Made by a program: the position numbers and the translations under genes
Notes under the pieces: model-generated
Seen by the model: the letters and a program-made list of their open reading frames with translations, nothing else
Database searches by the model: none
Told to the model about the DNA's origin: nothing
Shown here: piece by piece, positions 3,177-55,132 of the stretch
How positions within the stretch are numbered: the stretch's first letter is position 1
Layout: the number at the start of each line of letters is the position of its first letter
From: a virus
Lineage: Duplodnaviria; Caudoviricetes
IMG/VR virus record: IMGVR_UViG_3300033074_000304
Location: 2,540-66,539 of that record
Reading direction: 5' to 3' (one strand)
DNA length: 64,000 nucleotides

Positions 3177-3481
3177 AGATACTGCTACACGACGGAAGAG
3201 AGCCAGTGCTGCTCAGATACGAATACCCATCCTTTGAACTCTGCTGGAAGAAGCAGACCAAGGACAAGGTTACCGGAGAAGTAACCGACGGGTGGGCACC
3301 GCAGCTGTACTTTGTATCACCGGCCCAAGCCCTGAGCAGGCTGCTTACCATGAAGGTGGGCAACTCTGACACAGCTACCCTGAAGGAGTTGAAGGCAGCG
3401 ATAGAGAAAGCAAGTCTGGAGATCATGGAAGCGTACAGCACGCAAATCACCGAGGAGGAGTTAAAGAATGTCAAACCTTAA
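3173..3481 (+). CDS. Hypothetical protein
   Basis: Translationally coupled ORF in the operon. Confidence 0.6.
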   Translation: MKILLHDGREPVLLRYEYPSFELCWKKQTKDKVTGEVTDGWAPQLYFVSPAQALSRLLTMKVGNSDTATLKELKAAIEKASLEIMEAYSTQITEEELKNVKP

Positions 3482-4349
3482 AGACAAAGTAGTGCAGAAG
3501 GCGGTAGCAGCCAAGCCACAGACCATTGGGGACAAGCTCAACCTGATGGCACCACAGTTCAACAAGATCATGCCGGGGTTTCTGCGCAAGATTGGAGGGG
3601 CAGAGGCTCTGGGGCGTATAGCTCTCAATGAAGTGCGCCGCCAACCGCGTCTGGCTCAGTGCAGCTGGGAATCTCTGGCCGGGGCCCTGATGACCTGTGC
3701 CCAGACCGGGCTGCTTCCGGGCCCACAGCGTCACTGCTACCTGATCCCTTATGGCCAAGAGGTGCAGTTCCAATTTGATTACCGCGGTATGATAGAATTA
3801 GTCCGTCGTTCCGGGGAGTTAGCAACGATCATGGCCACAGCTGTGTATGAGGGTGACGACTGCGAAATTGATATCGGCGCGTGCCATGTTCGCCACCCTT
3901 ACAACGAGAAGGTGGACAAGAGCGACCCTACAAAGATCAGGTTCGTCTACGCCAAGGCAGTGATGAAGGACGGGTCAGTTGCCCTTGAGGTTATGAACCG
4001 GGCGGAGATCGACGCTATCCGTAAACGCTCACAGGCGTCATCAAAAGGCCGACAGTCACCGTGGGATACCGATTGGGAGATGATGGCACGCAAGACCGTG
4101 CTCAAGCGCCTTTGTACCAAAGGGCAGCTCCCACTATCACTTGAGATGCAGAAGTTCGTCCAAGCTGACGAGTCTGTCCGTAGATCAGTCGATGCCGAGC
4201 CCGTCAATGCCCTTGAGTTGCCGCCTATTGCAATCATCCCGTCTACCGATGGTGTGTCGGTAGATGAGTCGGGATGGAAGCAGACCGAGATGATCCAGAC
4301 TGAAGAGCCTGCTACAGACATATTCGGTGAAGAGGTGGCGAATGGCTAA
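3468..4349 (+). CDS. recT: RecT-family single-strand annealing protein
   Basis: CAQTGLLPG..HCYLIPY, QFDYRGMIELVRRSG, SPWDTDWEMMARKTVLKRL. Confidence 0.93.
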   Translation: MSNLKDKVVQKAVAAKPQTIGDKLNLMAPQFNKIMPGFLRKIGGAEALGRIALNEVRRQPRLAQCSWESLAGALMTCAQTGLLPGPQRHCYLIPYGQEVQFQFDYRGMIELVRRSGELATIMATAVYEGDDCEIDIGACHVRHPYNEKVDKSDPTKIRFVYAKAVMKDGSVALEVMNRAEIDAIRKRSQASSKGRQSPWDTDWEMMARKTVLKRLCTKGQLPLSLEMQKFVQADESVRRSVDAEPVNALELPPIAIIPSTDGVSVDESGWKQTEMIQTEEPATDIFGEEVANG

Positions 4350-4746
4350 GAAGAAGGGTAACCAGCTCTACTGCAAGTTCCAGCTACTGACGGAGCCTGA
4401 GCTAAAGTCGTTCGGCCCCAAACAACGGGTCAAGTTCCTATGGCTCTTCGTGAACGAGAAGGGCGACACCAAGAAAGAGAAGGTGTGGGTTACCTTTTAT
4501 GCGTGGGATAAGTTGGCGATGCACATCGTCAACAACTACCACAAGGGTGACTGGATCACCGTAGACCGGGCGTCGCCAAAGGTTGACATCATCAAGCGCG
4601 GTGACCAAGAGAGCACAGTATTGGCTTGGAACGTCTGGGCCCTTGATGAGCAGCAGGACGTACCTGAAATACCCCAGACGGTTGACGATGACTGTGAGCT
4701 GGGCGAGACCGTGCTGCTGGAGGATGAAGATGACATGCCCTACTGA
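4342..4746 (+). CDS. SSB-like OB-fold protein
   Basis: WVTFYAWDKLA..IVNNYHKGDWITV, acidic C-terminal tail ending DDMPY; position after RecT. Confidence 0.7.
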   Translation: MAKKKGNQLYCKFQLLTEPELKSFGPKQRVKFLWLFVNEKGDTKKEKVWVTFYAWDKLAMHIVNNYHKGDWITVDRASPKVDIIKRGDQESTVLAWNVWALDEQQDVPEIPQTVDDDCELGETVLLEDEDDMPY

Positions 4747-5365
4747 TCACACATGCTCAGATGGCAGGCCACTGAAGTACGAGGAGGGAAAGCCAAAGGT
4801 TGGGTTAGTACCTCCGCAGTTGGCCAGAGACCTTGCCCGTGTTTATGAGTACGGGTTGACCAAATACGAGAGAGACAGCTGGAAGAAGTTCACTCTTGAG
4901 GGGGCCAGAGAACTGATCAACCCCAGTATCAGGCACGCTGATGAATACCGGGATGGTCGGTACGTTGACGACGAGTCCCAGTGCTACCACCTGATGCAGG
5001 CTATCTGGAACTTGTTCACAATACACTGGCATGAACTTGACAAGAACCCGGAATATCGGAGGCAATATGAGGAATTACGTTTTAGCAGGCTTGAGCCTGT
5101 TGCTGGTTGTGGCGGGGATGACGCTGGATTACCGGATGAACCTCCCTGTGGAAGAGGACCCGACAATGCCTGCGCTGACGGGTGCGTCCGCTGCTACGAT
5201 GACACCCCAACAGGAGAGGCTTTCAGAGTTCTTTACGAAGCATGGGAGTCCAGCACCAAAAGAGATGGCAATAGCAATCAGCCACGTAAAGCCGAAGAAC
5301 AGGGCGGTGCTCGCAGCTGTGGCGGTCGTAGAGAGCAACGGGGACCATCGTTCTATCGGAGATAA
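4730..5365 (+). CDS. dATP/dGTP diphosphohydrolase (DUF5664-like)
   Basis: KYEEGKPKVGLVP, VYEYGLTKYERDSW, RH, DDESQCYHLMQAIWN; start reassigned to ATG 4730. Confidence 0.8.
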   Translation: MTCPTDHTCSDGRPLKYEEGKPKVGLVPPQLARDLARVYEYGLTKYERDSWKKFTLEGARELINPSIRHADEYRDGRYVDDESQCYHLMQAIWNLFTIHWHELDKNPEYRRQYEELRFSRLEPVAGCGGDDAGLPDEPPCGRGPDNACADGCVRCYDDTPTGEAFRVLYEAWESSTKRDGNSNQPRKAEEQGGARSCGGRREQRGPSFYRR

Positions 5366-5636
5366 TGGGGACAGCAGAGGAGCTTGGCAAGTGCAGCCCA
5401 AGCATTGGGGTAGAGTCCCAGATGACGCTACTGGGCAGGCGTTGCAGGCAGAGCGCATCCTTGAGGAACTGGTGGCTTCTACGCCACGGGGGAACCTTTT
5501 ACACGCCTTATCAGCTTACAATACTGGAAGCTATCACAAACGAGTTGGGCATAGATACGCAAGACAGGTCATCAATTTAAAAAGGAGATTGGCATTATGG
5601 CACGAGACGCACGAGGCAGGTTTATCGCGGATGTAG
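5067..5636 (+). CDS. Lytic transglycosylase (SLT-like) with N-terminal membrane anchor
   Basis: Hydrophobic N-terminus, VVESNG (catalytic Glu), GAWQV, ALSAYNTG; SD GGAGG before ATG 5067. Confidence 0.8.
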   Translation: MRNYVLAGLSLLLVVAGMTLDYRMNLPVEEDPTMPALTGASAATMTPQQERLSEFFTKHGSPAPKEMAIAISHVKPKNRAVLAAVAVVESNGDHRSIGDNGDSRGAWQVQPKHWGRVPDDATGQALQAERILEELVASTPRGNLLHALSAYNTGSYHKRVGHRYARQVINLKRRLALWHETHEAGLSRM

Positions 5637-5893
5637 AGACAGTGGAGTTTACAGATGGCCAGTGTGTGACGCTGGCCGGGTCGCTGGGGGTTGTCCTCCT
5701 TATGACATTTGAGCGCAACTTCAAGCCAATGAAGAATGGCTCCCCACACCTGATCGCACGCAAGATTAAGGCCGTCAAGGAAGCCGTGCTGGACCTGTAC
5801 AAGTCCACAGGAGAGCCGATTGACGACAAATACGCAGAGCTGACCTGCAAAGTCTGGGACGAGACCATGATCAAGCTGAGCAAAGGAGCGTAG
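5597..5893 (+). CDS. Hypothetical protein
   Basis: ORF in the operon with SD AAGGAG. Confidence 0.6.
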   Translation: MARDARGRFIADVETVEFTDGQCVTLAGSLGVVLLMTFERNFKPMKNGSPHLIARKIKAVKEAVLDLYKSTGEPIDDKYAELTCKVWDETMIKLSKGA

Positions 5894-5894
5894 C

Positions 5895-6320
5895 ATGGCA
5901 GAGCGCAAAACAGAGCGTAGGTTGGAAGCCAAATACCCGAAGACATGCGTGATATGCGGGATTGACTTTATGGCCAAATACTCGCACTCGAAGGCGTGCT
6001 CTGCAAAGTGTAGCAACGCACTCCACTACAGGCAAAAAGAGATACTGAGCAGGGCCAATTATGGGGTGTATATCAAGCCAGGGCCGGTTCAAAAGAAACA
6101 ATCCTACACCAGCCCCACCAGTGACGCTGAGCAGCTTGCTCTGAACAGGTTGATAGATAGCAAGAGGTTCGATAGACCAGACCCCGGTCGCTCGTACAAA
6201 CCGGGTGACCCTGACTTTGACCGGCTGGTCAAGGAGATCACCCCTCTCAACAGGATCGACAACGTGGCCGGTATCAGCACCCCTACTTTCCGGGCGTTGC
6301 ATGAGGTTTGCAAGCGTTGA
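5895..6320 (+). CDS. Hypothetical Zn-binding protein
   Basis: CVICG...ACSAKC. Confidence 0.6.
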   Translation: MAERKTERRLEAKYPKTCVICGIDFMAKYSHSKACSAKCSNALHYRQKEILSRANYGVYIKPGPVQKKQSYTSPTSDAEQLALNRLIDSKRFDRPDPGRSYKPGDPDFDRLVKEITPLNRIDNVAGISTPTFRALHEVCKR

Positions 6321-6345
6321 CATCCAAGTTGGTTGGTGGTAGCAT
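6317..6345 (+). promoter_or_regulatory. Sigma70-type promoter upstream of the replication genes, with operator-like sites in the spacer
   Basis: TTGACA-17 bp-TAGCAT; the spacer overlaps CATCCAAGTTG and CAAGTTGGTTG. Confidence 0.65.
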
Positions 6346-6651
6346 CCAATTAGCTCTTTAACCTGAAGCGTCTTTGGGGGACGTGGAGGGTACATATAAC
6401 GCTGTGTCAGATCAGCAACGCTTTCAAGTGCAAACCAAGGAGCCCCAACTCCTTTGCACGACCGGCCCCTTTAGAGTATCTGACCTCTACTGGGGCCATT
6501 CCTTTTCTCTGGAGATACTATGCCGTTATTTTGGATTGAGGCGATGATCGCTTACCGGAAACACCTTGAGAGCAAGATAGAGTTGACCCGCATGGAAGAG
6601 CTGGACTTGGACTACCTTAACGACAGACTACACCCATAAAGGTGACACCAC

Positions 6652-7452
6652 ATGTGTATTCCTTTTGTAAAAATAGCGCGAGACCTGCAGGACCACCCAT
6701 TATGGAAAGAGAAACCATTCAGCAGGGGGCAGGCGTGGATTGATCTTATTTTGATGGCCAGCTACAAAGATGGGGCGATACGGAGACGTGGAATCAAGGT
6801 AAAAGTCCTTCGTGGAGAAATAGGTTACTCATTACGGGAGCTTGCAGAAAAATGGGGTTGGTCACTAGGCAAAGTACAGCGATACATAGACGAGTTAAAA
6901 AGCGATAAGCAAATAGATACAAGAACCGATACGGAGGGCGTAAACGTAACTACCGTACTTTGCTTGGTTAATTACGAAAAGTTCCAAAGCAATGGTACGG
7001 AGAACGATACGGAGAACGATACGGAGAAGAAGCAAAAGGTGATACGGAAACGATACGGAAACGATACGGAGACGGGTACAGATAAAGAAGTTAAAGAAGT
7101 TAAAGAAAGAAAAGAAGAAACCATGTCCGCAGATTTGTTTGAAGAATTTTGGGGATGCCTGCCGAGCAGGGCGAAGAGGTGTGGCAAGGCTGGTGCCAAA
7201 AAATCTTGGGACAAGCATGTCAACGGCAACGCTGCCGAAGTTATAAGTTCAGTCAGGTCGCACATGCAAAGTGCAGACTGGGTCAAGGAAAACGGTAAGT
7301 TCATACCGATGATAACCTCTTGGATCAACCAGCATAGATGGACAGCCCCTGCAGAGAGTCTCGATATCAGTCGCGCCTCAGCCGCTTGTACTGCGCCATA
7401 CTCCCAGTCAGACATCAACACAGCCCTCAGGGCTCGCAAGGTGGTTATATGA
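6652..7452 (+). CDS. Phage replication initiator (lambda O/DnaD-like, winged-HTH N-terminus)
   Basis: GQAWIDLILMA..RG...SLRELAEKWGWS N-terminal motif; FEEFW..LP..K..GKAGAKKSW...FIP..SWINQHRW C-terminal motif; internal iterons. Confidence 0.85.
   Translation: MCIPFVKIARDLQDHPLWKEKPFSRGQAWIDLILMASYKDGAIRRRGIKVKVLRGEIGYSLRELAEKWGWSLGKVQRYIDELKSDKQIDTRTDTEGVNVTTVLCLVNYEKFQSNGTENDTENDTEKKQKVIRKRYGNDTETGTDKEVKEVKERKEETMSADLFEEFWGCLPSRAKRCGKAGAKKSWDKHVNGNAAEVISSVRSHMQSADWVKENGKFIPMITSWINQHRWTAPAESLDISRASAACTAPYSQSDINTALRARKVVI
6995..7072 (+). repeat. Iteron-like direct repeats (putative replication origin inside the initiator gene)
   Basis: TACGGAGAA x3 at a 12-bp period, then GATACGGA x3 at an 11-bp period, followed by the A-rich AAAGAAGTT repeat. 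Confidence 0.75.
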
Positions 7453-9188
7453 AGTCATGGTCAGATGTAGGCATATCAGTTCCAGATTCAGCTGCAGGGG
7501 AATATTACACCACCTGCCCCAAGTGCAGCCCGACCCGCAAGAACAGCAAAGCCAAGTGTTTGTCAGCCAATATTACAGAAGGGGTGTGGTTTTGCCATCA
7601 CTGCAGCTGGTCAGGGTCACTCAAAAAAGGTGAGTGGTCTAAGGCCGAGGTTAAGCGCGAGTGGACAAGGCCGACATACATCCCTCCGCAGACAGCTGAC
7701 GATAAGCTGATGGTTTGGTTTCATAGAAGGGGTATACCTTCGAGGGTAGTAGCCAGAAACAAAATCAAGGCTACAGAAGTCTTTATGCCGCAGGCTGGCA
7801 CAAAGGTGTTGGCAATAGCCTTCCCTTATTTCAGGGGTGGTGAGTGTCTTAATGTGAAGTACCGAGACTACGACAAAAACTTCCGCATGGAGGCTAACGC
7901 TGAACAAACTTTCTACGGGCTTGATGACATACTCCCGAATATGGTCGTGGTAGTAGAGGGAGAGATGGATAAGCTGGCCGTAGAGGCCGCTGGCATCACG
8001 TCGTGCATATCCGTCCCAGCCGGAGCTCCTAACGCTGATAGCAAGGAATACAGCAGCAAGTTTGACTTTCTGGAAAACAGTATGGACCAGATTGCTGACG
8101 TAAAGTGCTTTGTGTTGGCTACAGACGCAGACCCTAACGGCAGGAGGCTGGAGGATGAGCTGGGCCGCAGGTTGGGCAAGCACAGATGCAAGCGCGTGGT
8201 GTGGCCGGACGGCTGCAAAGACGCCAATGATGTGCTGCTGAGGCATGGGCCAGAAGTGCTTCAGTCGTGTATCATGGATGCCCGCCACTTCCCTATTGAC
8301 GGCGTGTTTACAGTAGAGGACTTCGCACAAGACATAGACGATTTATATGCCAAGGGTTTCCAACGCGGGGACTTGCTTGGCTACCAGGTCCTTGACGAGT
8401 TGTACTCGGTGGTCCCAGGCGAGCTTACTGTGGTTACGGGTATACCCAACCACGGCAAGTCAGAGTTTCTGGATCAAATGCTCGTAAAGCTGGTGATGCA
8501 GCACGGATACCGTATCGGGATATTTAGCCCTGAGAACCAGCCGCTGGCATACCATTTCTACAAGCTGGCGGAAAAGTATATCGGCAAGCCTGGGTTCGGT
8601 CGGGGCAGATTCACTCAGGCCGAGATGGCCAAAGCCAAGACCTGGTGCAAGGACCATTTCAGGTTTGTGCTGCCGAAGCCCGAAGACAGGACTGTTGAGA
8701 AGGTGCTGGGAGTAGCGGCAGAAGTGGTGTTAAGGGACGGGATTAAGGGACTGGTGCTGGACCCGTGGAATGAGTTCGAGCATAACAGGGCCAACGGGAT
8801 GTCAGAGCACGAGTACATAGGGTGGGCTCTGATGCGGGTCAAAGAATTTGCCAGGGCGTATGGGGTGCATGTCTGGGTCGTAGCCCACCCGACCAAGATG
8901 TTGAGGGACGTCCAGCTAAAAAAGGACTCTGGTATTGATGCCTACTTGATACCCAAGGCGTATGACATCAGTGGGTCTTCCAACTGGAATAATAAGCCAG
9001 AGGTAGTCATGGCCGTGTATCGGTGGTTCGACGGGCCACTAGAGGGTGCCGTTGAGGTACACATCCAAAAGTGCAGGTTTAAGGGCACTGGCAAACCAGG
9101 GATGTCTGTATTTAGGTACGATAAGGATACTGGCAGGTACACCGAGATTGATCCAACACCGCCGTCTACCGAAGAGGACCCGTACTAA
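7449..9188 (+). CDS. Bifunctional primase-helicase (T7 gp4/Twinkle-like)
   Basis: Zn-binding CPKC...CHHC, TOPRIM VEGEMD and ATDAD, Walker A TGIPNHGKS, LDPWN, VVAHPTK, QKCRF. Confidence 0.92.
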   Translation: MKSWSDVGISVPDSAAGEYYTTCPKCSPTRKNSKAKCLSANITEGVWFCHHCSWSGSLKKGEWSKAEVKREWTRPTYIPPQTADDKLMVWFHRRGIPSRVVARNKIKATEVFMPQAGTKVLAIAFPYFRGGECLNVKYRDYDKNFRMEANAEQTFYGLDDILPNMVVVVEGEMDKLAVEAAGITSCISVPAGAPNADSKEYSSKFDFLENSMDQIADVKCFVLATDADPNGRRLEDELGRRLGKHRCKRVVWPDGCKDANDVLLRHGPEVLQSCIMDARHFPIDGVFTVEDFAQDIDDLYAKGFQRGDLLGYQVLDELYSVVPGELTVVTGIPNHGKSEFLDQMLVKLVMQHGYRIGIFSPENQPLAYHFYKLAEKYIGKPGFGRGRFTQAEMAKAKTWCKDHFRFVLPKPEDRTVEKVLGVAAEVVLRDGIKGLVLDPWNEFEHNRANGMSEHEYIGWALMRVKEFARAYGVHVWVVAHPTKMLRDVQLKKDSGIDAYLIPKAYDISGSSNWNNKPEVVMAVYRWFDGPLEGAVEVHIQKCRFKGTGKPGMSVFRYDKDTGRYTEIDPTPPSTEEDPY

Positions 9189-9200
9189 AGGAGACAACCA

Positions 9201-9587
9201 ATGAGTTTTGAATCGGCTGACAACTACTTTTCGCTTTCAATCAAGCGCAAAACATGCGATAAATGGGTGGAGTTGGACTTGTTCAAGGAGCTGAAGTCAG
9301 TTACGCATGCTGAGCAGCTGCTACTGTCAATGGATGGGGAAGAAGCGGTTGCCAAGTTTAAGAAGGGGCGGAACGTGGTATTCCTTTGCGGCAATGAGAA
9401 GCTGAAGAAGCAGATGAGCCCGAAGGGAAACTGCATCAGCTTTGAGAAGGGTGTGGCCTACATGAGGGAGCACCGGGTGCTGCCAAGGATCATCGAGGAA
9501 ATCAACCAGCCTTTGCTCATAGAAGCGGTGAAGGTGTTTGAGGGGGTAGTGACAGAGATCAGTGTTGCCCCTCTGGAGGCGTTGTGA
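9201..9587 (+). CDS. Hypothetical protein
   Basis: SD AAGGAG; ORF track. Confidence 0.6.
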   Translation: MSFESADNYFSLSIKRKTCDKWVELDLFKELKSVTHAEQLLLSMDGEEAVAKFKKGRNVVFLCGNEKLKKQMSPKGNCISFEKGVAYMREHRVLPRIIEEINQPLLIEAVKVFEGVVTEISVAPLEAL

Positions 9588-9841
9588 GGACTCTGGGCGG
9601 ACTTTTAGATGCAGACCCTACCCTTACCATAGGTGTAAGCAATAAATCGCTCGTACAGCTTCTGGGACGTCTTAGGATTTTGCAGAGGGATGACCCTGAC
9701 AAGGGGTTCATGAGAATGGAGCGGGAGGCGATGATGGTGGAGGGTGGTTTGCGGCCATTGGCCGCCCATAGATGGATGGACTTGAACCCCGACATGTACG
9801 GGGATATAAAAACAGCGGAGGCTTTAAATGAACAAGGGTGA
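9584..9841 (+). CDS. Hypothetical protein
   Basis: Coupled ORF. Confidence 0.5.
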   Translation: MRTLGGLLDADPTLTIGVSNKSLVQLLGRLRILQRDDPDKGFMRMEREAMMVEGGLRPLAAHRWMDLNPDMYGDIKTAEALNEQG

Positions 9842-44956: not shown

Positions 44957-47900
44957 ATGGCTCTGAAACCATTTTCTGGAGAACTTGATAAAGAGCCTGT
45001 GCTGAAGCCTTTTGATGGACGGCTCGACGGAGAATCCCCCAAGCGCACCATTCTTGGCACTGCAGCTGATGTCGGCGTATCGGCCTTAAAGGGCTCTGTC
45101 GGCCTCGTGCAGTCTGGTGTCGGTCTGGCTGATACCGCAACTGGCGGCCATATCGGCAAGGCTATCGAAGACTATACTCCGGTGCAGCTGAAGAAGACAC
45201 AGGCTGAGTTGGATACTTGGTATTCTGATGCCCAGAAGGCGGCCAACCAGAAGGTCTCAGACGCCAAGGGGTTCGGAGGCAAACTGTCTGCGTTGGTGGA
45301 CAACCCTTCCGTAGCATTCCACGGTGCTCTTGAGTCCGCCCCGTCCATGCTGGGTGCTGCTGGTATTGGCCGTGGTGCTGCCGCCATAGCTCCAAAGATA
45401 CTGGGTGGTGCTGCAAACGCATGGAAGGCAGCTGCTGTGGGCGAAGGCGCTTACTCCGCTGGTTCGCTTGCTGAAGGCATGAGAGAGCAGAGCAAGGACG
45501 GACTGCTCACCCCCGGCCAGCAGGGCGCTGCTGTCCTCGGCGGTCTAGGTACTGCTGCTATTGGAGGCGCGTCTGGCAAACTCCAGAAGAAGCTGGGCTG
45601 GGATGATGTTGAGGCCTCTCTGGTCAACAAGGCGGCTATCGGCGCATCCAAGAAGGGTATGCCCACCCGCATGGCTCAGGGTGCCGCCTCTGAAGGTGCC
45701 TTTGAAGAAATGCCACAGTCTATGTGGGAGAAGGGTGCTGAGAACCTTGGTGCTGGTCGTCCCTACACTGAAGGCATGGCTGAGGCTGGCGCTGAAGGCC
45801 TTGCAGTCGGTGGCCTCATGGGTGCCGGTGGTGGCACTGTCCAGCATCGTATGGCCAAGAATGACGTTGATATGGACACCTACCGCAAAGAGGTAGAGGC
45901 AGAATACCAGCGCAATATCACCGACCCGGTGCGCAAGAAAGAGTTGGAAGCCGAAATGGTGGCCCGTGGTTGGATGCAGCAACCGGGCAGCACCCAGAGT
46001 GACCAAGACTTGCTGCAGATAGGTTTTACTCCGACTGGACAACCTATCACTGATCCTCGCAAACCTTGGGCCGGTGGATCAACTTTTGATACTGGCGCAG
46101 ACGATGGACAGGCTGGCAACGCAATAGACGGTAGAGCGGTCTCAGGGGATGTCATCGCCCCTCTGTCTATGTCTGAGATTGACGTGCTGAACGGGCCACC
46201 AGTGATTGAGGGCGAAATAGTGCCTGACCGGCCTGCCCTACCAGCCCCACTCAAGGCTCTGCCTGCTCCGGCTGATCTGGCCGGGAAAGCTCTTGGCGAC
46301 AACTTCGCAATGGCTGACGGCCCACTGACCACTGGCGATACCAAGATGGGTCCGGCTGCTCAATCTGCTGGTCTTGAGTTCCGTAATGGGAACGAGTTGC
46401 TGGCAACCGATAAGACCGGCAGCCTTGATGTGCCGAGCGTGGCCAGTTCAGAACAGATTCAGCAGGCAGCCTACGACCGCGTTATGACCACCATGACCAA
46501 GACCCTGTCAGGCCAGATGCTGACCGAGCAGGAGCAGGCCCAGCTGAAGCACGACCTGAATGTGATGGGTTCGTTGCAGAAGCTGAACAAACTGGCGCCC
46601 AAGCCGGTTGATGCTGGCGTTCAGGCTCCTGCAGGAGAGATCACTCCAGCCGGTTACAAACCAGCTTCTGACAAAGGCGTTCCCACCAGCGAATACACGG
46701 CTCAGGCGAACAAGCCATTCAAGAATGCACCCAAGCAGGCACCGGTAGCCGGAGCAGGCGTAGAAGGGATGCTGACCAACCTCAAAGAAGGAGATTCATC
46801 ATGGCAAAAGGCGGATTCTCAGCAGGCAAACCAAACCCTTTCGCAAAGCAACCAGCAGGCAAAGGAGCCCCAGCAGTCCCCGGTGGCAAGCCCTTCGGCG
46901 GCAAAGACAAAGGCCCCTGCAAAAAAGGCGGCAAAAAGTAAGTCTGCTGGCGTGCCAGCGACTCAGGCTGCAAGCTCAAACCAATCTCTCACCGAAGAGA
47001 CTAAGCCTCTGCAGCCTGCTGCCGACGAGTACGCAGGAAAGACAGACGCAGAACTTGAGAAGCTGGCCGACGTCAAGGAGTCCTTTGGGCTCAAGGATGA
47101 GGCAGACGCTATAAGGGCACGCATTGGCAGCACTAAGGCTGCAAGCGCACCATCTGGGGCCACGATGCCTGAGACGCCTCTGCAGCCTGCTAAACCGACC
47201 CTGATCTCTGAAGGCATCAAGAAGCAGAAGGCCAAGAAGGCAGCTGCTCCTGCTGCTGTCGAGACCCCCACCCACGAAGTCATGACTGAAGGTGGAGACA
47301 AGGTAAGTGTGCAGGCCAAGGACAAGGCAACAGCCAAGAAAATGGTGCAGCTCGCTGAAGCCATGGACGCCATACCCCAGCTCAAGAAGGACATACAGAA
47401 GGCCAAAGACAAAAATAGAGACGCGGATTATATCGCTGACCTTGAATCATATCTTGCAGACGCTCGCAAAACGGTGCAGAAGCTGAAGGGCCAAGGAGTG
47501 GAGGCTCCGACCAACTGGGGTAAAGGTGAAGCCAGATATGAAGCCGAGATGTCCAACATCGATGATACCACGGTAAACACAACCAAATGGTCTGCCCCGG
47601 ACGCTGCCACCAACGAGTCTGAGTCAGAGACCGATAAAAAGGAACCACCGACCTTCGAGGAGTATGCCCGAGGTGTAGCCATCGAGACGGTCATGAAGCG
47701 TCAGGCTATCCGGTCCATGGCGACCAACGCAGCCCCCGGAGTCAACATCTGGCGCAACGTGGCTGAGATGAACAAGGAACGGGGCACCGATGTCAAGGTT
47801 GGCGGAGAGGGCTTCTACTCCTCTGACGACGGCTCAATCCACTTCTTCACCGATGACATCAAGGGCAAGGACCTTGCCACTGCTGCCAGCCGCGCTGCTT

Positions 47901-50900
47901 ACGTCGCCCGTCACGAGCTCAAACACCGTGGCTTTGTGGCTATCTTTGGCGACAAGATGAACCCGATGCTGGATGCCGTCTACAACCAGCACAAGGACAG
48001 GGTAGATGCGTATGTCAACGGTTTGAACCCGTTCCGTGTTGAGGCCAAGCTGGCACCGCTAGACTTGACCGCAGAAGCAGGCCAGCGCGAAGGCACTGAA
48101 GAATGGCTGGCGTCCCACACTGACCCCGCCTATGCCGGTGCGTCTGCCCTGACCAAGGCTATGGTGGGCAGTAACTCTATCCGTAGGCTCACTTCTGCTG
48201 CACGCAACTGGCTGCGCATGGCTGGTCTTAACCTCAAGTGGTCTGATCAAGACATTCTGAGCATGGCCAAGCAAGCCTTCAAAGCTGGACGTGACACCAA
48301 GGCAAAAGTTGGTGGTATTGACAAAACAACTAAGAAGTCGCATAGTACAAATGTAAACAGGTTCTCTCTCAACGCGCAAACGAACAAGCCGGGTGGCTAT
48401 GCCGGGATTTCTGCCAACACAAGGGATGCCCTTGAGAAATCAGTGGCAACTTACATGCCCCAAGTGGAAGCGATGCTGGACTCTGGCAAGCTTGATCTGT
48501 ACCATGGTACTGGCAACGATACCCCCAACGTATCGGCAGACGGGTACTTTGATGCACGCCAGTTCTCAGGTACGAACGAAGGTGGTGCTGCTCTGGGAGC
48601 CGGGACATACTTGGCTACCACGCCTGAGACAGGGATGTTCTACGCCGCTGCCTACACCAATGGCGTAGAGACCTACTTCCTGAATACGAGAGTGAACCCA
48701 CGGGCACAAGGCAAATCAGTTCTCAGGTTTGACGTGCCGCTGAACAAGCAGACCAAGCGTGTACAGGATGCCATCAGGGCAGCAGGGTTTGCAGTTGATG
48801 ACACAACAGGGACGGTCTTTTACAACCAGACAGCACCAAAGGCAGGCGGTGAGTGGGCACTGAACGATATCCTGTCCAAGCACGGCATTATAGGAACGGC
48901 AGCCCCGGCAGGTTGGGCAGGTGGCCATCTGTCGAGTAATGAGGCAGTAGTCAGGGCAGCTGATAATGGTGAGTTGAACTACGCGATATTCAATGACCGT
49001 GAGCATATCGAGATCAGAAGCCGCACCGTAATGAAGGCGGACGCCAAAGGGCAGTGGAAGCCAGTTGACTCAACGCTGTACAGAACTGGCAACATGTCCA
49101 CAGAAGCAGCGCCGGGGCTTGACTCAGGATATGGATACGCAGACGCCTACCAGCAATCTCCACTGAAAGTCAGGGATGAGTTTGACGACCGCACTCTGGC
49201 AGCCAAGCGCAAGTTCATCCTGAACGCGATGGATGTGCTGGGCCTCAAAGACCGTGGCCTACTGAGAGGGTACGGGCTCTGGAAGGGCCAGACCAACAAA
49301 GCCGACCAAGACCTGATCAGGCATGAGCTTGAGATCGACGAGAAGGGTAAGCCAGTATTCAAGGCCGAGTATGAGCAGCAGCTGAGAACGCTGCTTGCAC
49401 TGGCAGGCATGGTCACCCATCAGGATGGCGAGGGTTACCACGTACCGGTATATGAATCCACTGGTGAGTTTGACAACGCCATTGAGTTTGACTTCGGTGG
49501 CCAGCTTACCAGAGATGAGTTTCAGAAGTTTGGCGCAGAACTGACCAAGATATTTGGCGATGCGGCTCCGATTGCGGTGCCTACTGACAACGGTATCAGA
49601 GTAGTGGATTGGAGCGAAGGTGATTTTAAGACGTTTAAGCTCGCCATATCCGATGCCGTGGAGGCTGCTGGCCTAAAGACAAAAGCAACAGGGGCTATGG
49701 ATTTTTACTCCCCGTCTGGGCTGATGCACCATTCGGGTTTCCAAGAAGGAGTGGGTTATGGAACAAGCTACAGAGAACAGATTGCCGTTTTGGGAAAAAC
49801 CGGGAGTGCCGCCAAGACGTCCGGGACCAGACGATCCGATCTTCAACGAGCCGGTGAGGCTTTCTACCATGAGGCGTACCAGATCAGACGAGAGTTCGCA
49901 GAACGACACTGGGGCCTCAGCAGAAACGCCACCCAACAAGAGCGAGAAGCCTTAATCGGCCAAGACCCTGCTGCGTTTGCGCAAGAGTTGGCAGACACGC
50001 TGGGTGGCCAGACCGATGCAGCCTACATAGCTGACCGTGCCAATGGTGTTGGCCTCAAGGTAATGGAAGACCCAGTCAAGGGGCTCACCAACATCAAGAA
50101 CATGGTGTACAGGGACGACGTAGGCAGGGTGGCAGAAGCAATAGAGCAGGTCCAGCAAGGCAACTTTGAGGCGGTTGACAAGATCAAGCACCTGATTGCC
50201 AAGACCAAGCTGGGCACTGATATGAAAGCGTATGAAGCACTGCGCAAACCTGACGGTACGGTCTATGACCTGAACCCACCACGCAGGTTTAGCGTGGGGA
50301 CGGAGGTGCAGGATGACAGAACTGGACAAGGACGAAATACGAATATACAGCCACCTGCTGAAGGACTTGATGGAGAGTCCGGGGCAGAGGGGGCCAACCA
50401 ACAGGGTCAAAGCCAAGCTGCAGGAGCTGGGACTGGAGCCGTCAATATTGGAGACACTGGGCTACGAAGAGATGTTGCGCAGGATAGAGTCAGGCTCTCT
50501 GTAGCGGACCAAGGTTTTACAGAGTGGACAGAAGGGCTGCCATTGCGCGTGGAACTGCCAGAGCTATTCACCCGCGGGGTAGGCATAGGCCGCAACGAGT
50601 GGAGAGAAACGGACCCTGACATACTTGGGGAGAGATACAAGGACTTCGGCCCCGGCGTGTACTTGATGTTCCATGGGCCGAAGTGGCAACATAAATTCAA
50701 CAAGTTTGCCACCAAGGCAAATGATGGCGATGGCAGAGATTCCAGAGGCAATCGGTCTGTGTTTGTGTCGCCAAACGCTGAGTGGGCTGGGTCGTACCGG
50801 TTTATGCAGTTTGACGGTGCGGAAGAAGTGGCCGCACAGCTTAAATATTACGCCGACAAAGTGGCACAGGTGCGCGAAAGCGGGGGCAGCGAAGCAGAAA

Positions 50901-53900
50901 TTAAAGCCGCCCAAATCCGCCTAGATGATGAAAGCAAGGCTGCATCTAACCAGCTTTTTGGCTACGAAGTCATGCCTGTCTACGTCAAAACCAAGAACCC
51001 GTTCATGTTCTGGCGTAAGGACCACATGGACGCGCTGATAGCAGGAGTACCGGCTATGCTCGACACCTACCGCAGGGACAAGATCGCCAAGGGGGCTTGG
51101 GAGCCGTTTGACCATCCTGATGTGCAGGACTGGCTACGCGATAATGGGTATGACGCCTACTTTGAGACCGAGTTTGGCCAACTTCTTTATGAAGATAAGG
51201 ATACAGGCGATACCAAGACGGGTGGGCAGCTCAACCTCGCGCTGATAGGCCAATCAGAAGACCAGCAAATCAAATCCGCTACCGGCAACGTAGGCTCATA
51301 CGGCCAACGCCCGGTTACGGCTGAAGACGTGGCCAACCTCAAGATTACCGAAGCCGACCAGAAGGCCCTGGGCACCAACGTCGTCAAGGTAGGCGACCCC
51401 ATGACCCCGGAGATCGCCAATAAGCTGCAGGCGCTGGGGGACATCCGCTTCAGCGTAGCCACCCCGGCTGACACCATGTCCTTCACCAAGGCTGCCGACA
51501 GTGAGCGCCTGGGCTCCAACCCCGGTGGCATCTATCAGGACGCTGCTGGCAACAGGTTCTACGTTAAGTTCTACGACGATGACAATCAGGCCAAGTCAGA
51601 GATAGCTGCCGCGAAGCTGTACAGAGCAGCTGGGCTTCCTTCCCCTGACCTTACCCTCGGTCCTCTGCAAAACGGTCTCAACGGGCTTGCATCGCGCTGG
51701 AGAGATGATCTTCAGGAGTTGGAGCCTGCCGAGCTTGCTGCCCACCCTGATGCCCCGGCTGCATACTATGTATCTGCTGTTCTGAAGAACTGGGACGTGG
51801 TGGGTCTTGGGTATGACAACCTTGTCCAGACCGGCTACGGCAGACTGATGGTTGTTGACGGTGGCGGCACGTTCAAGTTCAGAGCCCAAGGTGGCCCCAA
51901 GGCATACGATGGCAATGTGCAGGCAGAACTGGACGGTTACCTTAACCCTTACCTGAATCCTGAAGCGGCCAGAGTGTTCTCCAAGATGTTTGAAGCGAAC
52001 CCGAAGGCCAAGGAGCAAGGGCAGGCCGCTGTAGCCAAGTTGACTGACAACGTGATTGACAAGGCTGTTGCTGAGGCTGGACTGGGGCAGGATATTGCTG
52101 AGGCGGCAAAGCAGCGCCGGGATGCGGTGATGAAGTTCTCGGTGGGGTCGCCTGAGTTCAAGACTTGGTTCGGCAATAGCAAGGTGGTTGACGGTCAGGG
52201 CAAGCCGCTGGTGGTGTATACAGGCACGAGCAAGGATGCTGATTTTACCAAGTTCAAAGCACCTAAAAATGGAGTATGGTTTACCTCTGACCGGGAGGTC
52301 GCGTCGCAATACGCAATGGAGAATGACAGCCAAGCCACCAAGATGGATTATTACACTGGCAAGTTTATCCACACCAACACCAGAGGTCGCGTAATACCAG
52401 TCTATTTGTCACTCCAGAACCCTAAAGCACTAGATACGGTTCCCGACTCCTTACGGTACGCATCTAACTATAAAAAAGCGCAAGGGGAGTATTTTGAACA
52501 ACTGAAAACTCAGGGCTACGATGGAGTAGTGATGCCGGGCGGCGTGTATGTGGCATTTAGGCCAGAGCAAATTAAGTCGTCAATGGGCAACCGTGGCACA
52601 TGGGATGGTAGCAACCCTGATATACGGTTCTCTATCAACGACACCCTGATTGCAACCGGCCTGACCCAAGGCCAATTCAACGCCCTCCATAATGTGGGGG
52701 CTCTGACTATCGACAAGACTTGGCAAGACAAGGCGGAGTCTCTGCAGAAGTCCATGTTCGGCAACTTCAGGCAGAAGTATGTTGACCAGTTTGACCCGCT
52801 GAAAGGGCTTGATGATCCTGCTGCCTACATGTACGCCAGACTGTCCAAGGCTTCTGACGGTGCTCTTGAGGCGTTCCTGAACTACGGCGACATCCGCATC
52901 AACGGTGGGGTGTATGACAGTATCGTGGGCGGCAAGGGTCTGACTGAGCTGATGCAGGGGCTGCAGGGTGAGCACGACCGCTGGATGTGGTGGGTGGCTG
53001 CCCAGCGTGCCGACAAGCTCTCCAAGGACGAAAGGGAGCGGCTGTTCGGTACTGCTGATATCCGTGAGCTGAAGTTGTTGAACCAAGGCGACCTGCCCGA
53101 CGGCCAGAAGCGCCTGAAGGTATACTCGGATACGTTGAAGGAGTTCCAGAAACTCAACGCCAAGGTGTTGAACGTAGGCCGCGATTCCGGGCTGATAGAC
53201 GCAAACTCCAAGCAGTTCTGGGAAGACGAGTTCTACATCCCCTTCTATCGTGCAGCTGAGGACGGTATAGAGGGTTCAGATGTGGGCCCAAGCACTTCCA
53301 GCGGCCTTGTCCGCCAGTACGCATTCAAGAAGCTGAGAGGCGGCACAGGCAAGTTGAACCAAGACTTGATGGCCAATATCCTGATGAACTGGTCACACAT
53401 CCTGTCAGCTTCTGCCAAGAACCGGGCAGCAAAGCAGGCCCTTGAATCAGCAGAGCGTATGGGTATCGCGGCCAAAGCCAAGCATGGCGAGAAGGGCGCT
53501 GTCTGGTTTATGGACGGTGGTAAGAAGACCAGCTACACCATTGACGAAGAGTACGCCCCGGTACTGGACGCTATCACCGCCATATCCAGAGCAGGGAGCG
53601 ACGGTCCGGGCGCGAAAGCCATGGGCAAGTTTAAGCACTGGCTGACCGTAGGTGTTACTGCCAACCCTACCTTCAAACTGCGCAACCTGATCAGGGACTC
53701 TATCGCTGCGATGGCTGTATCACCTCTTGGCTACAACCCGCTCAAGAACGTGAGCGACGGACTTGATATCATGAGGGACAAGCAGAACCAGACCTATGCT
53801 TCGCTGCTGGCTTCTGGCGGCATCATCCGGTTTGGCACCATGCTGGAAGGCGACCGTGCCTCCCACATGAGAAAGTTGATCAATGCAGGCATCCCGGAGA

Positions 53901-55132
53901 ATACCATTGTCACCAGCTGGGAACACGTTAAAGACAAGTTCACCAAGGGTCTTGACTGGTACAACGAGTGGGGCGACACCACTGAGGGTGCCAACCGCGC
54001 TGCCCTGTACCAGCAGCTGAGGGAACAGGGCGTATCACACGCCGAGGCCGCCTTCCAAGCACGGGATATGCTGGACTTCTCTATGGGTGGCACCAGTGGG
54101 GTTATCAGATACCTGACCTCAGTTGTACCGTTTATGAACGCCCGGATTCAGGGTCTGGACAAGCTGGCTCGCGGGGCACGAGAGGATAGCGGCAGATTCG
54201 CAGCTGTGCTTGGAGCAACCGCTCTGGCGTCCCTCTTCCTGTTGATGAAGTACCGTGACGATGACGACTGGAAGAAGCGCGAGGACTGGGACCGTGACAA
54301 CTACTGGTGGTTCAAGGTAGACGGTAGGGCCTATCGTATCCCCAAGCCGTTTGAAGTGGGTGCCATAGCCACGTTGGCAGAACGCACTGCGGAACTGTAT
54401 ATGAGCGATGAGATGACTGGTAAGCAGTTCGCCAGGTTCCTTAAAGATACTGTCCTGAACACGTTTGCAATGAACCCGGTGCCACAGATGTTTAAACCGG
54501 TAATAGACGTATATGCAAACGAGAACAGCTTCACCAAGCGTGCTATTGAGTCTGAGGGGATGGAGCATCTGCAGAAGTCAGAGCGTTACACCGGCACCAC
54601 CAGTGAGGCAGCCAGACTGTTGGGCAAAAACGGGCTCGTGTCCCCGGTGCAGATTGACCACCTTGTCAAGTCCTATGCCGGGTGGCTTGGTACTGCCGCC
54701 CTGACCATAGGCGATCTGACTGCCAAGGGTATTATGGACCGCCCAGCTGAAGCCGACCGCAGGCTGAAAGAGATGTTCTTCGTGGGCAACTTCGCAGAAG
54801 AGCTGCCCAGCGCATCCAGCCGGTATCTGACACAGTTCTACAAGCAGTCCCGTGAGATCACCGAAGCTCATGCTACCTTCAAGCTGTTGAACGAGACTGA
54901 CCCTGAGCGTGCTGAGCGGTACGCTGAAGAGAAGCAGAACGAGTTGGGGCTTTACAAAGCAGCCAACAGAATACAGCGGCAACTGGCCAAACTGAACGCC
55001 CAGACAAGAGCGATAGAAAACTCCCGCGACATGACCGGGGCAGAGAAGCGTGAAGCCATAGACGCCATAACTGAAGCCAAGAATCAGCTGGCAGCCAGTG
55101 CTGAACGGAGCCTTGCTTCTGTTTTAGATTGA
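44957..55132 (+). CDS. Giant polyvalent internal virion protein (zincin + 3 ART-like + kinase-like + LPD38)
   Basis: Gly/Ala-rich N-terminus; RHELKH zincin (47912); LYHGT (48503), MFHG (50672) and VYTGT (52217) ART-PolyVal-like modules with PVY and QIKS.GN.G motifs; YVKFY...NWDVVG...VDGGG kinase-like module; RIPKPFEVG LPD38 signature. Confidence 0.85.
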   Translation: MALKPFSGELDKEPVLKPFDGRLDGESPKRTILGTAADVGVSALKGSVGLVQSGVGLADTATGGHIGKAIEDYTPVQLKKTQAELDTWYSDAQKAANQKVSDAKGFGGKLSALVDNPSVAFHGALESAPSMLGAAGIGRGAAAIAPKILGGAANAWKAAAVGEGAYSAGSLAEGMREQSKDGLLTPGQQGAAVLGGLGTAAIGGASGKLQKKLGWDDVEASLVNKAAIGASKKGMPTRMAQGAASEGAFEEMPQSMWEKGAENLGAGRPYTEGMAEAGAEGLAVGGLMGAGGGTVQHRMAKNDVDMDTYRKEVEAEYQRNITDPVRKKELEAEMVARGWMQQPGSTQSDQDLLQIGFTPTGQPITDPRKPWAGGSTFDTGADDGQAGNAIDGRAVSGDVIAPLSMSEIDVLNGPPVIEGEIVPDRPALPAPLKALPAPADLAGKALGDNFAMADGPLTTGDTKMGPAAQSAGLEFRNGNELLATDKTGSLDVPSVASSEQIQQAAYDRVMTTMTKTLSGQMLTEQEQAQLKHDLNVMGSLQKLNKLAPKPVDAGVQAPAGEITPAGYKPASDKGVPTSEYTAQANKPFKNAPKQAPVAGAGVEGMLTNLKEGDSSWQKADSQQANQTLSQSNQQAKEPQQSPVASPSAAKTKAPAKKAAKSKSAGVPATQAASSNQSLTEETKPLQPAADEYAGKTDAELEKLADVKESFGLKDEADAIRARIGSTKAASAPSGATMPETPLQPAKPTLISEGIKKQKAKKAAAPAAVETPTHEVMTEGGDKVSVQAKDKATAKKMVQLAEAMDAIPQLKKDIQKAKDKNRDADYIADLESYLADARKTVQKLKGQGVEAPTNWGKGEARYEAEMSNIDDTTVNTTKWSAPDAATNESESETDKKEPPTFEEYARGVAIETVMKRQAIRSMATNAAPGVNIWRNVAEMNKERGTDVKVGGEGFYSSDDGSIHFFTDDIKGKDLATAASRAAYVARHELKHRGFVAIFGDKMNPMLDAVYNQHKDRVDAYVNGLNPFRVEAKLAPLDLTAEAGQREGTEEWLASHTDPAYAGASALTKAMVGSNSIRRLTSAARNWLRMAGLNLKWSDQDILSMAKQAFKAGRDTKAKVGGIDKTTKKSHSTNVNRFSLNAQTNKPGGYAGISANTRDALEKSVATYMPQVEAMLDSGKLDLYHGTGNDTPNVSADGYFDARQFSGTNEGGAALGAGTYLATTPETGMFYAAAYTNGVETYFLNTRVNPRAQGKSVLRFDVPLNKQTKRVQDAIRAAGFAVDDTTGTVFYNQTAPKAGGEWALNDILSKHGIIGTAAPAGWAGGHLSSNEAVVRAADNGELNYAIFNDREHIEIRSRTVMKADAKGQWKPVDSTLYRTGNMSTEAAPGLDSGYGYADAYQQSPLKVRDEFDDRTLAAKRKFILNAMDVLGLKDRGLLRGYGLWKGQTNKADQDLIRHELEIDEKGKPVFKAEYEQQLRTLLALAGMVTHQDGEGYHVPVYESTGEFDNAIEFDFGGQLTRDEFQKFGAELTKIFGDAAPIAVPTDNGIRVVDWSEGDFKTFKLAISDAVEAAGLKTKATGAMDFYSPSGLMHHSGFQEGVGYGTSYREQIAVLGKTGSAAKTSGTRRSDLQRAGEAFYHEAYQIRREFAERHWGLSRNATQQEREALIGQDPAAFAQELADTLGGQTDAAYIADRANGVGLKVMEDPVKGLTNIKNMVYRDDVGRVAEAIEQVQQGNFEAVDKIKHLIAKTKLGTDMKAYEALRKPDGTVYDLNPPRRFSVGTEVQDDRTGQGRNTNIQPPAEGLDGESGAEGANQQGQSQAAGAGTGAVNIGDTGLRRDVAQDRVRLSVADQGFTEWTEGLPLRVELPELFTRGVGIGRNEWRETDPDILGERYKDFGPGVYLMFHGPKWQHKFNKFATKANDGDGRDSRGNRSVFVSPNAEWAGSYRFMQFDGAEEVAAQLKYYADKVAQVRESGGSEAEIKAAQIRLDDESKAASNQLFGYEVMPVYVKTKNPFMFWRKDHMDALIAGVPAMLDTYRRDKIAKGAWEPFDHPDVQDWLRDNGYDAYFETEFGQLLYEDKDTGDTKTGGQLNLALIGQSEDQQIKSATGNVGSYGQRPVTAEDVANLKITEADQKALGTNVVKVGDPMTPEIANKLQALGDIRFSVATPADTMSFTKAADSERLGSNPGGIYQDAAGNRFYVKFYDDDNQAKSEIAAAKLYRAAGLPSPDLTLGPLQNGLNGLASRWRDDLQELEPAELAAHPDAPAAYYVSAVLKNWDVVGLGYDNLVQTGYGRLMVVDGGGTFKFRAQGGPKAYDGNVQAELDGYLNPYLNPEAARVFSKMFEANPKAKEQGQAAVAKLTDNVIDKAVAEAGLGQDIAEAAKQRRDAVMKFSVGSPEFKTWFGNSKVVDGQGKPLVVYTGTSKDADFTKFKAPKNGVWFTSDREVASQYAMENDSQATKMDYYTGKFIHTNTRGRVIPVYLSLQNPKALDTVPDSLRYASNYKKAQGEYFEQLKTQGYDGVVMPGGVYVAFRPEQIKSSMGNRGTWDGSNPDIRFSINDTLIATGLTQGQFNALHNVGALTIDKTWQDKAESLQKSMFGNFRQKYVDQFDPLKGLDDPAAYMYARLSKASDGALEAFLNYGDIRINGGVYDSIVGGKGLTELMQGLQGEHDRWMWWVAAQRADKLSKDERERLFGTADIRELKLLNQGDLPDGQKRLKVYSDTLKEFQKLNAKVLNVGRDSGLIDANSKQFWEDEFYIPFYRAAEDGIEGSDVGPSTSSGLVRQYAFKKLRGGTGKLNQDLMANILMNWSHILSASAKNRAAKQALESAERMGIAAKAKHGEKGAVWFMDGGKKTSYTIDEEYAPVLDAITAISRAGSDGPGAKAMGKFKHWLTVGVTANPTFKLRNLIRDSIAAMAVSPLGYNPLKNVSDGLDIMRDKQNQTYASLLASGGIIRFGTMLEGDRASHMRKLINAGIPENTIVTSWEHVKDKFTKGLDWYNEWGDTTEGANRAALYQQLREQGVSHAEAAFQARDMLDFSMGGTSGVIRYLTSVVPFMNARIQGLDKLARGAREDSGRFAAVLGATALASLFLLMKYRDDDDWKKREDWDRDNYWWFKVDGRAYRIPKPFEVGAIATLAERTAELYMSDEMTGKQFARFLKDTVLNTFAMNPVPQMFKPVIDVYANENSFTKRAIESEGMEHLQKSERYTGTTSEAARLLGKNGLVSPVQIDHLVKSYAGWLGTAALTIGDLTAKGIMDRPAEADRRLKEMFFVGNFAEELPSASSRYLTQFYKQSREITEAHATFKLLNETDPERAERYAEEKQNELGLYKAANRIQRQLAKLNAQTRAIENSRDMTGAEKREAIDAITEAKNQLAASAERSLASVLD
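48318..48346 (+). promoter_or_regulatory. Candidate internal promoter within the giant gene
   Basis: TTGACA-17 bp-CATAGT with CAACTAAGAAG in the spacer; locally AT-rich; resembles the lysis promoter at 55129. Confidence 0.45.
49758..49955 (+). CDS. Nested overprinted ORF 1 (65 aa) in an alternative frame of the giant gene
   Basis: SD AAGGAG 6 nt before ATG; WEKPGVPPRRPGPDDPIFNEPVRLS. Confidence 0.5.
   Translation: MEQATENRLPFWEKPGVPPRRPGPDDPIFNEPVRLSTMRRTRSDESSQNDTGASAETPPNKSEKP
50313..50504 (+). CDS. Nested overprinted ORF 2 (63 aa) in an alternative frame of the giant gene
   Basis: SD GGAGGT 5 nt before ATG; globular helical-looking sequence while the giant frame here is low-complexity linker bounded by RFSV and RLSV. 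Confidence 0.6.
   Translation: MTELDKDEIRIYSHLLKDLMESPGQRGPTNRVKAKLQELGLEPSILETLGYEEMLRRIESGSL

Follow-up and report, generated by a model that had tools for sequence, protein, structure and literature searches.

Why does one segment of a giant phage gene read as a low-complexity linker in one frame and as a gene-like open reading frame (ORF) in the next? The question is raised by the window analyzed here, a 64,000-nt stretch corresponding to bases 2540-66539 of the 66.5-kb IMG/VR virus record IMGVR_UViG_3300033074_000304, rated as 100% complete by CheckV. A giant polyvalent protein gene, made up of a single ORF of 10,176 nt (44957-55132, + strand; 3391 aa; its frame is referred to as frame 0), contains a nested ORF of 63 aa in the +1 frame (ORF 2; 50313-50504, + strand; product P0002). 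We tentatively favor the view that ORF 2 is an embedded small gene, native to the +1 frame and still translated, and that the giant gene may read through it as a disordered linker.

ORF 2 starts at ATG 50313 and ends at TAG 50502-50504; its product is MTELDKDEIRIY...ESGSL*, and includes the peptides IYSHLLK and LQELGLEPSILETLGYEEMLR. The start codon is preceded at optimal spacing by the Shine-Dalgarno (SD)-like sequence GGAGGT (50302-50307, + strand), 6 nt separating GGAGG, encoded by the frame-0 codons T-E-V, from the ATG. An intact start and a ribosome-binding site are found, in other words, inside another gene, frame 0 being open throughout. The segment is delimited by two module junctions of the giant protein. 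The first, of the RFS type, is the R-F-S-V of PPRRFSV (aa 1776/1777; 50285-50296, + strand, with R at nt 50285), the second is R-L-S-V (aa 1846; 50492-50503, + strand), and is overlapped by the stop codon of ORF 2, which terminates 12 nt past the R of RLSV. The frame-0 text between RRFSV and RLSV is GTEVQDDRTGQGRNTNIQPPAEGLDGESGAEGANQQGQSQAAGAGTGAVNIGDTGLRRDVAQDRV, a low-complexity linker rich in G/Q/A/E/D and made of atypical codons (GTEVQDDRTGQ...DVAQDRV; 50297-50491, + strand). An initial annotation of this DNA had set RRFSV at 50285, the next junction at 50492, the ATG at 50313 and the stop where it is found, and had described a 63-aa +1 ORF led by GGAGGT and lying over a G/Q/A-rich linker. 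All these coordinates hold, as does the description of SD, ORF and linker. From junction to junction, the segment is filled by a +1 ORF which is gene-like and has a strong SD. Codon usage, the phase shift in GC content at third codon positions (GC3), and a relative found elsewhere all suggest that +1 is a genuine, probably older, coding frame.

The strongest result is the coding signature carried by the +1 frame in its codons and GC3, which is clearly beyond chance. Over ORF 2, +1 is the best of the six frames by codon log-likelihood: it scores -3.904 per codon, above the mean of 373 windows from real genes (-3.973 +/- 0.092), while frame 0 scores -4.206, at the 0.3 percentile of the same windows. 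Across these 373 control windows, all from this phage, the true frame always outscores the alternatives. Synonymous choices in frame 0 are highly atypical, the log probability per codon being -1.445 vs. -1.170 +/- 0.044 (z about -6); Gly codons over the linker are GGA (seven) and GGG (five), never GGC, which stands at 40% genome-wide. The z score of the +1 frame ranges from +3.6 to +5 against synonymous nulls, and none of 419 open synonymous resamples is as gene-like as the +1 reading of ORF 2. When local codon composition is kept, z is 3.6, and 0 of 20,000 permutations are both open and as gene-like (joint probability < 5e-5). Four control ORFs in alternative frames, submitted to the same local permutation, feature z scores of 0.95-2.5 and joint probabilities of 0.0014-0.04. 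In frame 0, GC3 goes down to 0.32-0.42, and A at third positions (A3) reaches its maximum for the whole gene, over the interval 50297-50566. GC3 is normal (0.62-0.76) in the flanks, and in the DNA separating ORF 2 from a second nested ORF located upstream (ORF 1, see below). The A/K/Q/P-rich N-terminal linkers of the giant protein do not show the effect. Both codon usage and GC3 phase have, over ORF 2, the pattern of a coding sequence set in the alternative frame.

The giant frame is not a passive partner of this overlap. If the +1 protein alone is constrained, the probability of frame 0 being open over the ORF 2 span is 0.014, which implies that selection keeps the giant frame open and that both readings are preserved. 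As to which came first, in validated viral overlaps codon usage is closer to that of the genome in the ancestral frame (Sabath, Wagner and Karlin 2012; PMC3494269). Since genome-like usage is here a property of +1, the comparison suggests that +1 is a genuine, and probably the older, coding frame. The overprinting pairs of that study are similar to the segment at hand in that one frame is genome-like, the other deviant and disordered-looking. They differ in being experimentally validated and phylogenetically dated, whereas the present case offers only a single sequence and a fragment of 34 aa. The linker had been supposed to exist in order to carry the small gene. The causal arrow probably points the other way, the linker looking like the by-product of a pre-existing small gene read in another frame.

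According to the favored reading, the interval 50300-50504 would be a small gene cassette having +1 as native frame, and including the SD GGAGG, ATG 50313, a 63-aa peptide predicted to form four helices, and the TAG, flanked on both sides by module-junction motifs of the polyvalent effector gene. Because its essential C-terminal domains have to stay in frame, the giant gene would read the cassette in frame 0, the read-through yielding a hydrophilic, disordered G/Q/A/E linker. The giant frame would in this case overprint the small gene, and not the reverse. Most likely, ORF 2 would still be translated from its own SD and ATG on the late mRNA of the giant gene, giving rise to a separate small helical protein; among several conceivable roles, it might serve the neighboring modules as an accessory factor (chaperone, inhibitor or antidote).

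Nested same-strand genes are known in phages, as Rz1 inside Rz in lambda, and E inside D and B inside A in phiX174. ORF 2 resembles them, being a short +1 ORF with its own start inside a longer gene, with both frames open and one of the two readings low-complexity or disordered. In contrast with those cases, ORF 2 is hosted by a multi-effector gene of 10 kb, and overlaps with it where a linker joins two modules. A further difference lies in the codon signature, which points to the small ORF as the older partner and to the host linker as the overprint, although the arrangement is known here from sequence alone. If the favored reading is correct, a class of phage proteins systematically escapes annotation pipelines. 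Captured small genes read in another frame may turn into linkers, which would offer a tangible path to gene fusion and to the de novo birth of linkers. Polyvalent proteins are regarded as arsenals of many enzymes delivered by injection; in the same case, direct tests would come within reach for candidate regulators or antidotes of such effectors.

Relatives of the ORF 2 product are rare. The only close one detected by phmmer among 1.84 billion representative sequences (P0013; MEELSKEEIRIYSQLLDDLIENPGQPGPTNRVRG) is a 34-aa protein, 71% identical to P0002 over aa 1-34 and starting at the same Met; it is a called protein on three Logan contigs, the longest of 3166 nt. The frame-0 linker and its flanks were compared with a set of 5.8 billion proteins, at near and at shorter lengths, and only the giant protein itself and one weak ART match were retrieved; no called protein of 30-5935 aa resembling either the frame-0 linker or the flanks was found. 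In this relative, the +1 ORF is apparently the gene called, and its neighbors apparently are neither module 1 (48359-50296) nor module 2 of the giant protein. Matches of P0002 to CCDC53-repeat and ankyrin proteins in the phmmer search were discarded as homologues, being eukaryotic repeat proteins aligned over 22 residues only. A tblastn search with P0002 gave noise in phages (E = 6) and nothing in plasmids. No locus was confirmed by searching viral, metagenome and genome collections with the P0002/P0013 alignment, and the DNA at 49500-51500 found no match among GenBank phages. A degenerate DNA pattern for PGQxGPTNRV hit at least 120 loci in metagenomes, and among the matches listed all are due to chance. 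No family match to P0002 was found in Pfam, PHROGs, NCBIfam, PADLOC or PDB sequences, and nothing under E = 3 was matched by its model in Foldseek.

An alternative, possible but doubtful, is that ORF 2 is a chance ORF and a compositional artefact, i.e. that the +1 frame of a purine-rich, A3-rich linker happens to be open, SD-led and made of common codons (CTG, GAG, AAG), and is not translated. Several data point in this direction, and weigh against an embedded gene. The length of ORF 2 alone is not beyond chance, whether assessed by codon permutation or by synonymous mutation. With the giant protein kept fixed, the +1 frame is open over the ORF 2 span with a probability of 0.105 by synonymous resampling, and of 0.055 by local codon permutation. 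The +1 frame of the giant gene includes ten open stretches of at least 63 codons, and 12 comparable ORFs starting with ATG and at least 40 aa long, among which ORF 2 ranks fifth or sixth. The notion that hydrophilic linkers cannot make +1 stops was rejected as a full account of these figures, and is at best a partial one, 0.105 comparing with about 0.07 in an average gene window. The +1 third positions over ORF 2 are themselves atypical (G 51%, T 3%), and the excess behind the codon signal is mainly contributed by A at frame-0 wobble positions, which translates into charged +1 residues; the charged fraction of P0002, above the null (z about +4), follows from this. The peptide had been described as helical. 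Four helices are predicted in a single-sequence AlphaFold (AF2) model (pLDDT 71.5, pTM 0.48), but neither hydrophobicity nor helical amphipathicity exceeds the null. The ESM recognition score of P0002 (2168) is below 2300, and the ESM Atlas provides no usable match. Full-length homologues are missing among the 1.84 billion representatives, and P0002 is absent both from 80 related IMG/VR loci hosting homologous giant ORFs and from the four closest phage records (G001-G004). As to the 34-aa relative, its ten substitutions imply a similar identity in both frames, by minimal-change reasoning on the protein only, and are no proof of selection on +1.

The specificity of the codon test was gauged in 81 giant genes, i.e. 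the one in the window and those of the related loci (L002-L081). Alternative-frame ORFs of at least 50 aa beat frame 0 in codon score in 38 of 1157 cases, several of which are plainly low in complexity (as L004 9402 and L025 401), a further point in favor of an artefact. A 33% "+1 conservation" noticed between nested ORFs of L012/L054 and L068 was discarded as frame-unspecific, three frames aligning equally well and differences being flat over codon positions. Taken together, the 38 ORFs and the L012/L068 case imply that the codon test returns false positives where linkers are acidic or purine-rich. Should ORF 2 be no more than a compositional artefact, it would stand as a warning that codon-based frame tests misbehave over purine-rich linkers. 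In these 81 genes, all 38 ORFs outscoring frame 0 lie in the +1 frame, and long ORFs in alternative frames exceed the expectation of synonymous resampling (508 vs. 395).

The SD adds to the case for a gene, within limits. Two ORFs of at least 60 aa led by GGAGG or AGGAG are found in alternative frames of the giant gene, namely ORF 1 and ORF 2, vs. 0.09 expected by synonymous resampling (P = 0.002). Over 68 related giant genes the enrichment is weak (14 vs. 8.1 expected), which again counts against ORF 2. A 5-mer of the GGAGG class precedes about one fourth of the crude gene calls in the window. Very many windows had been screened at the first stage of reading, and a look-elsewhere effect, which favors the chance explanation, comes with this. 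In view of the mild family-wide enrichment and of the number of windows screened, the SD argument alone is weak. A combination of features speaks against a chance origin. Openness and codon score are jointly far less probable for ORF 2 than for any of the four control ORFs; the GC3 dip is sharply limited to ORF 2, and the A/K/Q/P-rich linkers at the N terminus do not show the effect; SD and ATG are optimally spaced, and a peptide with the same start is called as a gene elsewhere.

The signature could also be that of a fossil frame. The segment would have once been coding in the present +1 frame, either as a small gene of its own or as a helical mini-module that was originally in frame and was displaced by compensating indels near the junctions, and only the giant frame would be translated now. 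Though unlikely, this explanation accounts for codon usage and GC3, as well as for boundaries coinciding with junctions. Frame shifts are moreover known in giant genes, and the CTCTCT found at the 3' junction looks, by eye, slippage-prone. In L020 the giant gene is broken into two frames (2687-5794 and 5521-9774), as it also is in L013, hence frame changes, whether real or derived from assembly, occur at linkers; the upstream 1036-aa frame of L020 ends in a peptide which is nested in +1 in L077. A fossil, on the other hand, should not need the SD and ATG found at the 5' edge, which must be either coincidental or retained unused, and the +1 frame has no stop. No large protein carrying the peptide in frame was retrieved by phmmer among the 1.84 billion representatives, and two such events, one for ORF 1 and one for ORF 2, would be needed within 750 nt.

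ORF 1 (49758-49955, + strand; 65 aa, +1 frame, AAGGAG as SD) exhibits a codon anomaly similar to that of ORF 2, but weaker. The codon z score is about +3 to +3.7 for +1, and about -4 for synonymous choices in frame 0; the +1 frame is open with a probability of 0.47-0.5. Its peptide is P/R/S-rich and non-amphipathic, with a low hydrophobic moment (P = 0.99), and frame 0 looks there like an ordinary helical protein.

Conservation of a nested ORF can be monitored in the relatives. The screen of giant genes revealed a 68-aa +1 ORF (L045:6414-6620) shared by 11 related genes, the others being those of L041, L042, L043, L044, L046, L048, L049, L062, L071 and L074. Both the ATG, located after AAGGAAT, and the stop, located just before the next module (LTLESPTP), are kept among sequences with nucleotide identities as low as about 67-72%. 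Outside the ORF, the frame-0 wobble position is the most variable (41/48 and 42/50 columns in the two flanks, 83/98 in total). Over the second half of the ORF, frame-0 wobble variability drops to 15/34 (Fisher p = 1.6e-5 vs. 83/98), and the +1 wobble position is the most variable. The first half is constrained in frame 0, the +1-like constraint being restricted to the second half. The ORF falls in one of the three windows with the lowest synonymous divergence over the 10-kb gene, despite a low amino-acid identity in frame 0, and the probability of +1 being open, given the frame-0 protein, is 0.016-0.04 in three lineages. Frame 0 encodes a G/D/A/Q linker, and +1 a peptide of helical appearance (ESM recognition 1700, no usable ESM Atlas match); the ORF is located between InPase and LPD5, and has no toxin as neighbor. 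The L045-type ORF is a candidate for either a genuine overlapping gene or a frameshift tail. This pattern of variation suggests that +1 ORFs embedded over linkers can be conserved in this gene family; it is no proof of ORF 2.

The placement of the best-supported nested ORF of the relatives, which is not found beside a toxin, bears on the function envisaged in the initial annotation, in which ORF 2 would be an immunity or antidote protein, binding and neutralizing module 2 during virion assembly, the two being inherited as one overprinted unit. The model is very unlikely, and its appeal seems confined to positional plausibility. ORF 2 lies directly upstream of module 2 (P0004; 50492-51445, + strand), its product is small and predicted to be helical, as many immunity proteins are, and the evidence for a gene-like +1 frame holds for this model as well. 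The similarity of module 2 to ART domains, which had been part of the proposal, was found in Pfam, where it is sub-threshold: ART-PolyVal is matched at positions 44-139 of the profile only, with E 2.8e-4 and 22.1 bits, below the cut-off of 31.2. By eye, RLSVADQGFTEW at the second junction resembles KFSVGSPEFKTW, with which the ART-PolyVal module recognized by Pfam begins. Module 2 is at most a putative ART, and the fold obtained by single-sequence AF2 for linker plus module 2 (pLDDT 38.5) is too poor for a structure search. The lack of any match of P0002 to an immunity, antitoxin or defense family leaves the toxin-immunity interpretation unsupported. Nor was the peptide seen to travel with the ART-like module: no homologues of module 2 were found in viral contigs, phages, the 80 related loci or the closest relatives, modules 1-3 are all absent from the 80 loci, from G001-G004, and from GenBank phages and plasmids, and no homologue of either flank is called on the contigs encoding the 34-aa relative. 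For ORF 1, regarded as a partner immunity gene, the P/R/S-rich, non-amphipathic product likewise leaves the proposal unsupported. The internal promoter invoked for these ORFs corresponds to a site at 48318 which is at chance level, one being found vs. 1.4 in shuffled sequences (promoter/terminator scan). The founding paper on polyvalent proteins does not describe any cognate immunity partner (Iyer et al. 2017; PMC5512222).

The comparison with known ART pairs leads to the same outcome. Tre1-Tri1 and DarT-DarG are pairs of ART toxins with their immunity proteins or antitoxins, and ORF 2 is similar to their partners as a small ORF found beside an ART-like domain. The likeness ends there, as homology to immunity families and co-occurrence are lacking, the genes are not separate, and the ART-likeness of module 2 does not reach the threshold.

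A programmed +1 frameshift near 50300-50315, stimulated by the internal SD and terminated by the stop at 50504, would produce a truncated isoform (N terminus, module 1 and a helical tail) next to the full-length protein. An SD-like element is indeed present near the frame junction, the +1 segment stops exactly at the next module, and the L045 pattern, with frame-0 constraint in the first half and +1-like constraint in the second, would also fit a shift product. Yet no slippery or hungry-codon site was recognized when 50285-50320 was inspected by eye, no formal motif search having been made; an ATG with canonical SD spacing is a simpler route, and there is no precedent in this family. This is the least credible of the explanations considered here.

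One may speculate, at low odds, that polyvalent genes of this phage group repeatedly hold, over the linkers joining their modules, small and separately translated +1 genes, whose products would act on the modules at either side as non-packaged accessory factors (antidotes, chaperones, timers). It is similarly a long shot that ORF 2 and the conserved L045-type ORF are two examples of one gene-within-effector architecture, so far undescribed. Additional +1 ORFs with codon scores above those of the giant frame, and helical or globular-looking products, are L078:2991-3200, L031:4188-4367, L067:4701-5105, L015:8856-9029 and L002:8277-8465; no family match, and no divergent homologue among the fetched loci, was found for them.

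The giant protein itself features LPD38 at aa 3102-3271 (E 6e-37) and ART-PolyVal at aa 2412-2548 (E 1.8e-21). With both domains above Pfam thresholds, it qualifies as a polyvalent protein of the phage type, as defined by Iyer et al. (2017; PMC5512222), in which multiple conflict-related domains, an LPD together with an effector, and a phage context are found. As in the proteins described there, many effector-type domains, LPD38 and ART-PolyVal included, are carried by one polypeptide. The embedded ORF sets the gene apart: embedded ORFs are not described in that paper, and the words "overlapping", "linker" and "frameshift" never occur in its text. The homologous giant ORFs of the 80 related loci range from 1900 to 4170 aa; their C-terminal domains are 32-61% identical, the middle modules differ. 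InPase, LPD1/3/5, N6_Mtase and SNF2 are present in the same gene among relatives, module content being variable.

A third SD-led ORF in an alternative frame (46801-46941, + strand; +2 frame, 46 aa, AAGGAG as SD) lies over a Q/S/A/K-rich N-terminal linker of the giant protein. The P value of its log-likelihood ratio is 0.023, and the ORF is probably compositional, its product being low in complexity.

The junction motif is beyond chance in the giant protein. The strict form [RK]FS[VIL] has five matches vs. 0.12 in shuffled sequences, the relaxed form [RKVI][FL]S[VIL] six vs. 0.69. The motif is prominent in this giant protein; in contrast, among the polyvalent proteins of relatives, it was found in one of the four checked, as a single VKFSI in L002. 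In the window, [RK][FL]S[VIL] is found at every module start of the giant protein (48359, 50285, 50492, 51446, 52133 and 52625), and resembles the leads of ART-PolyVal domains.

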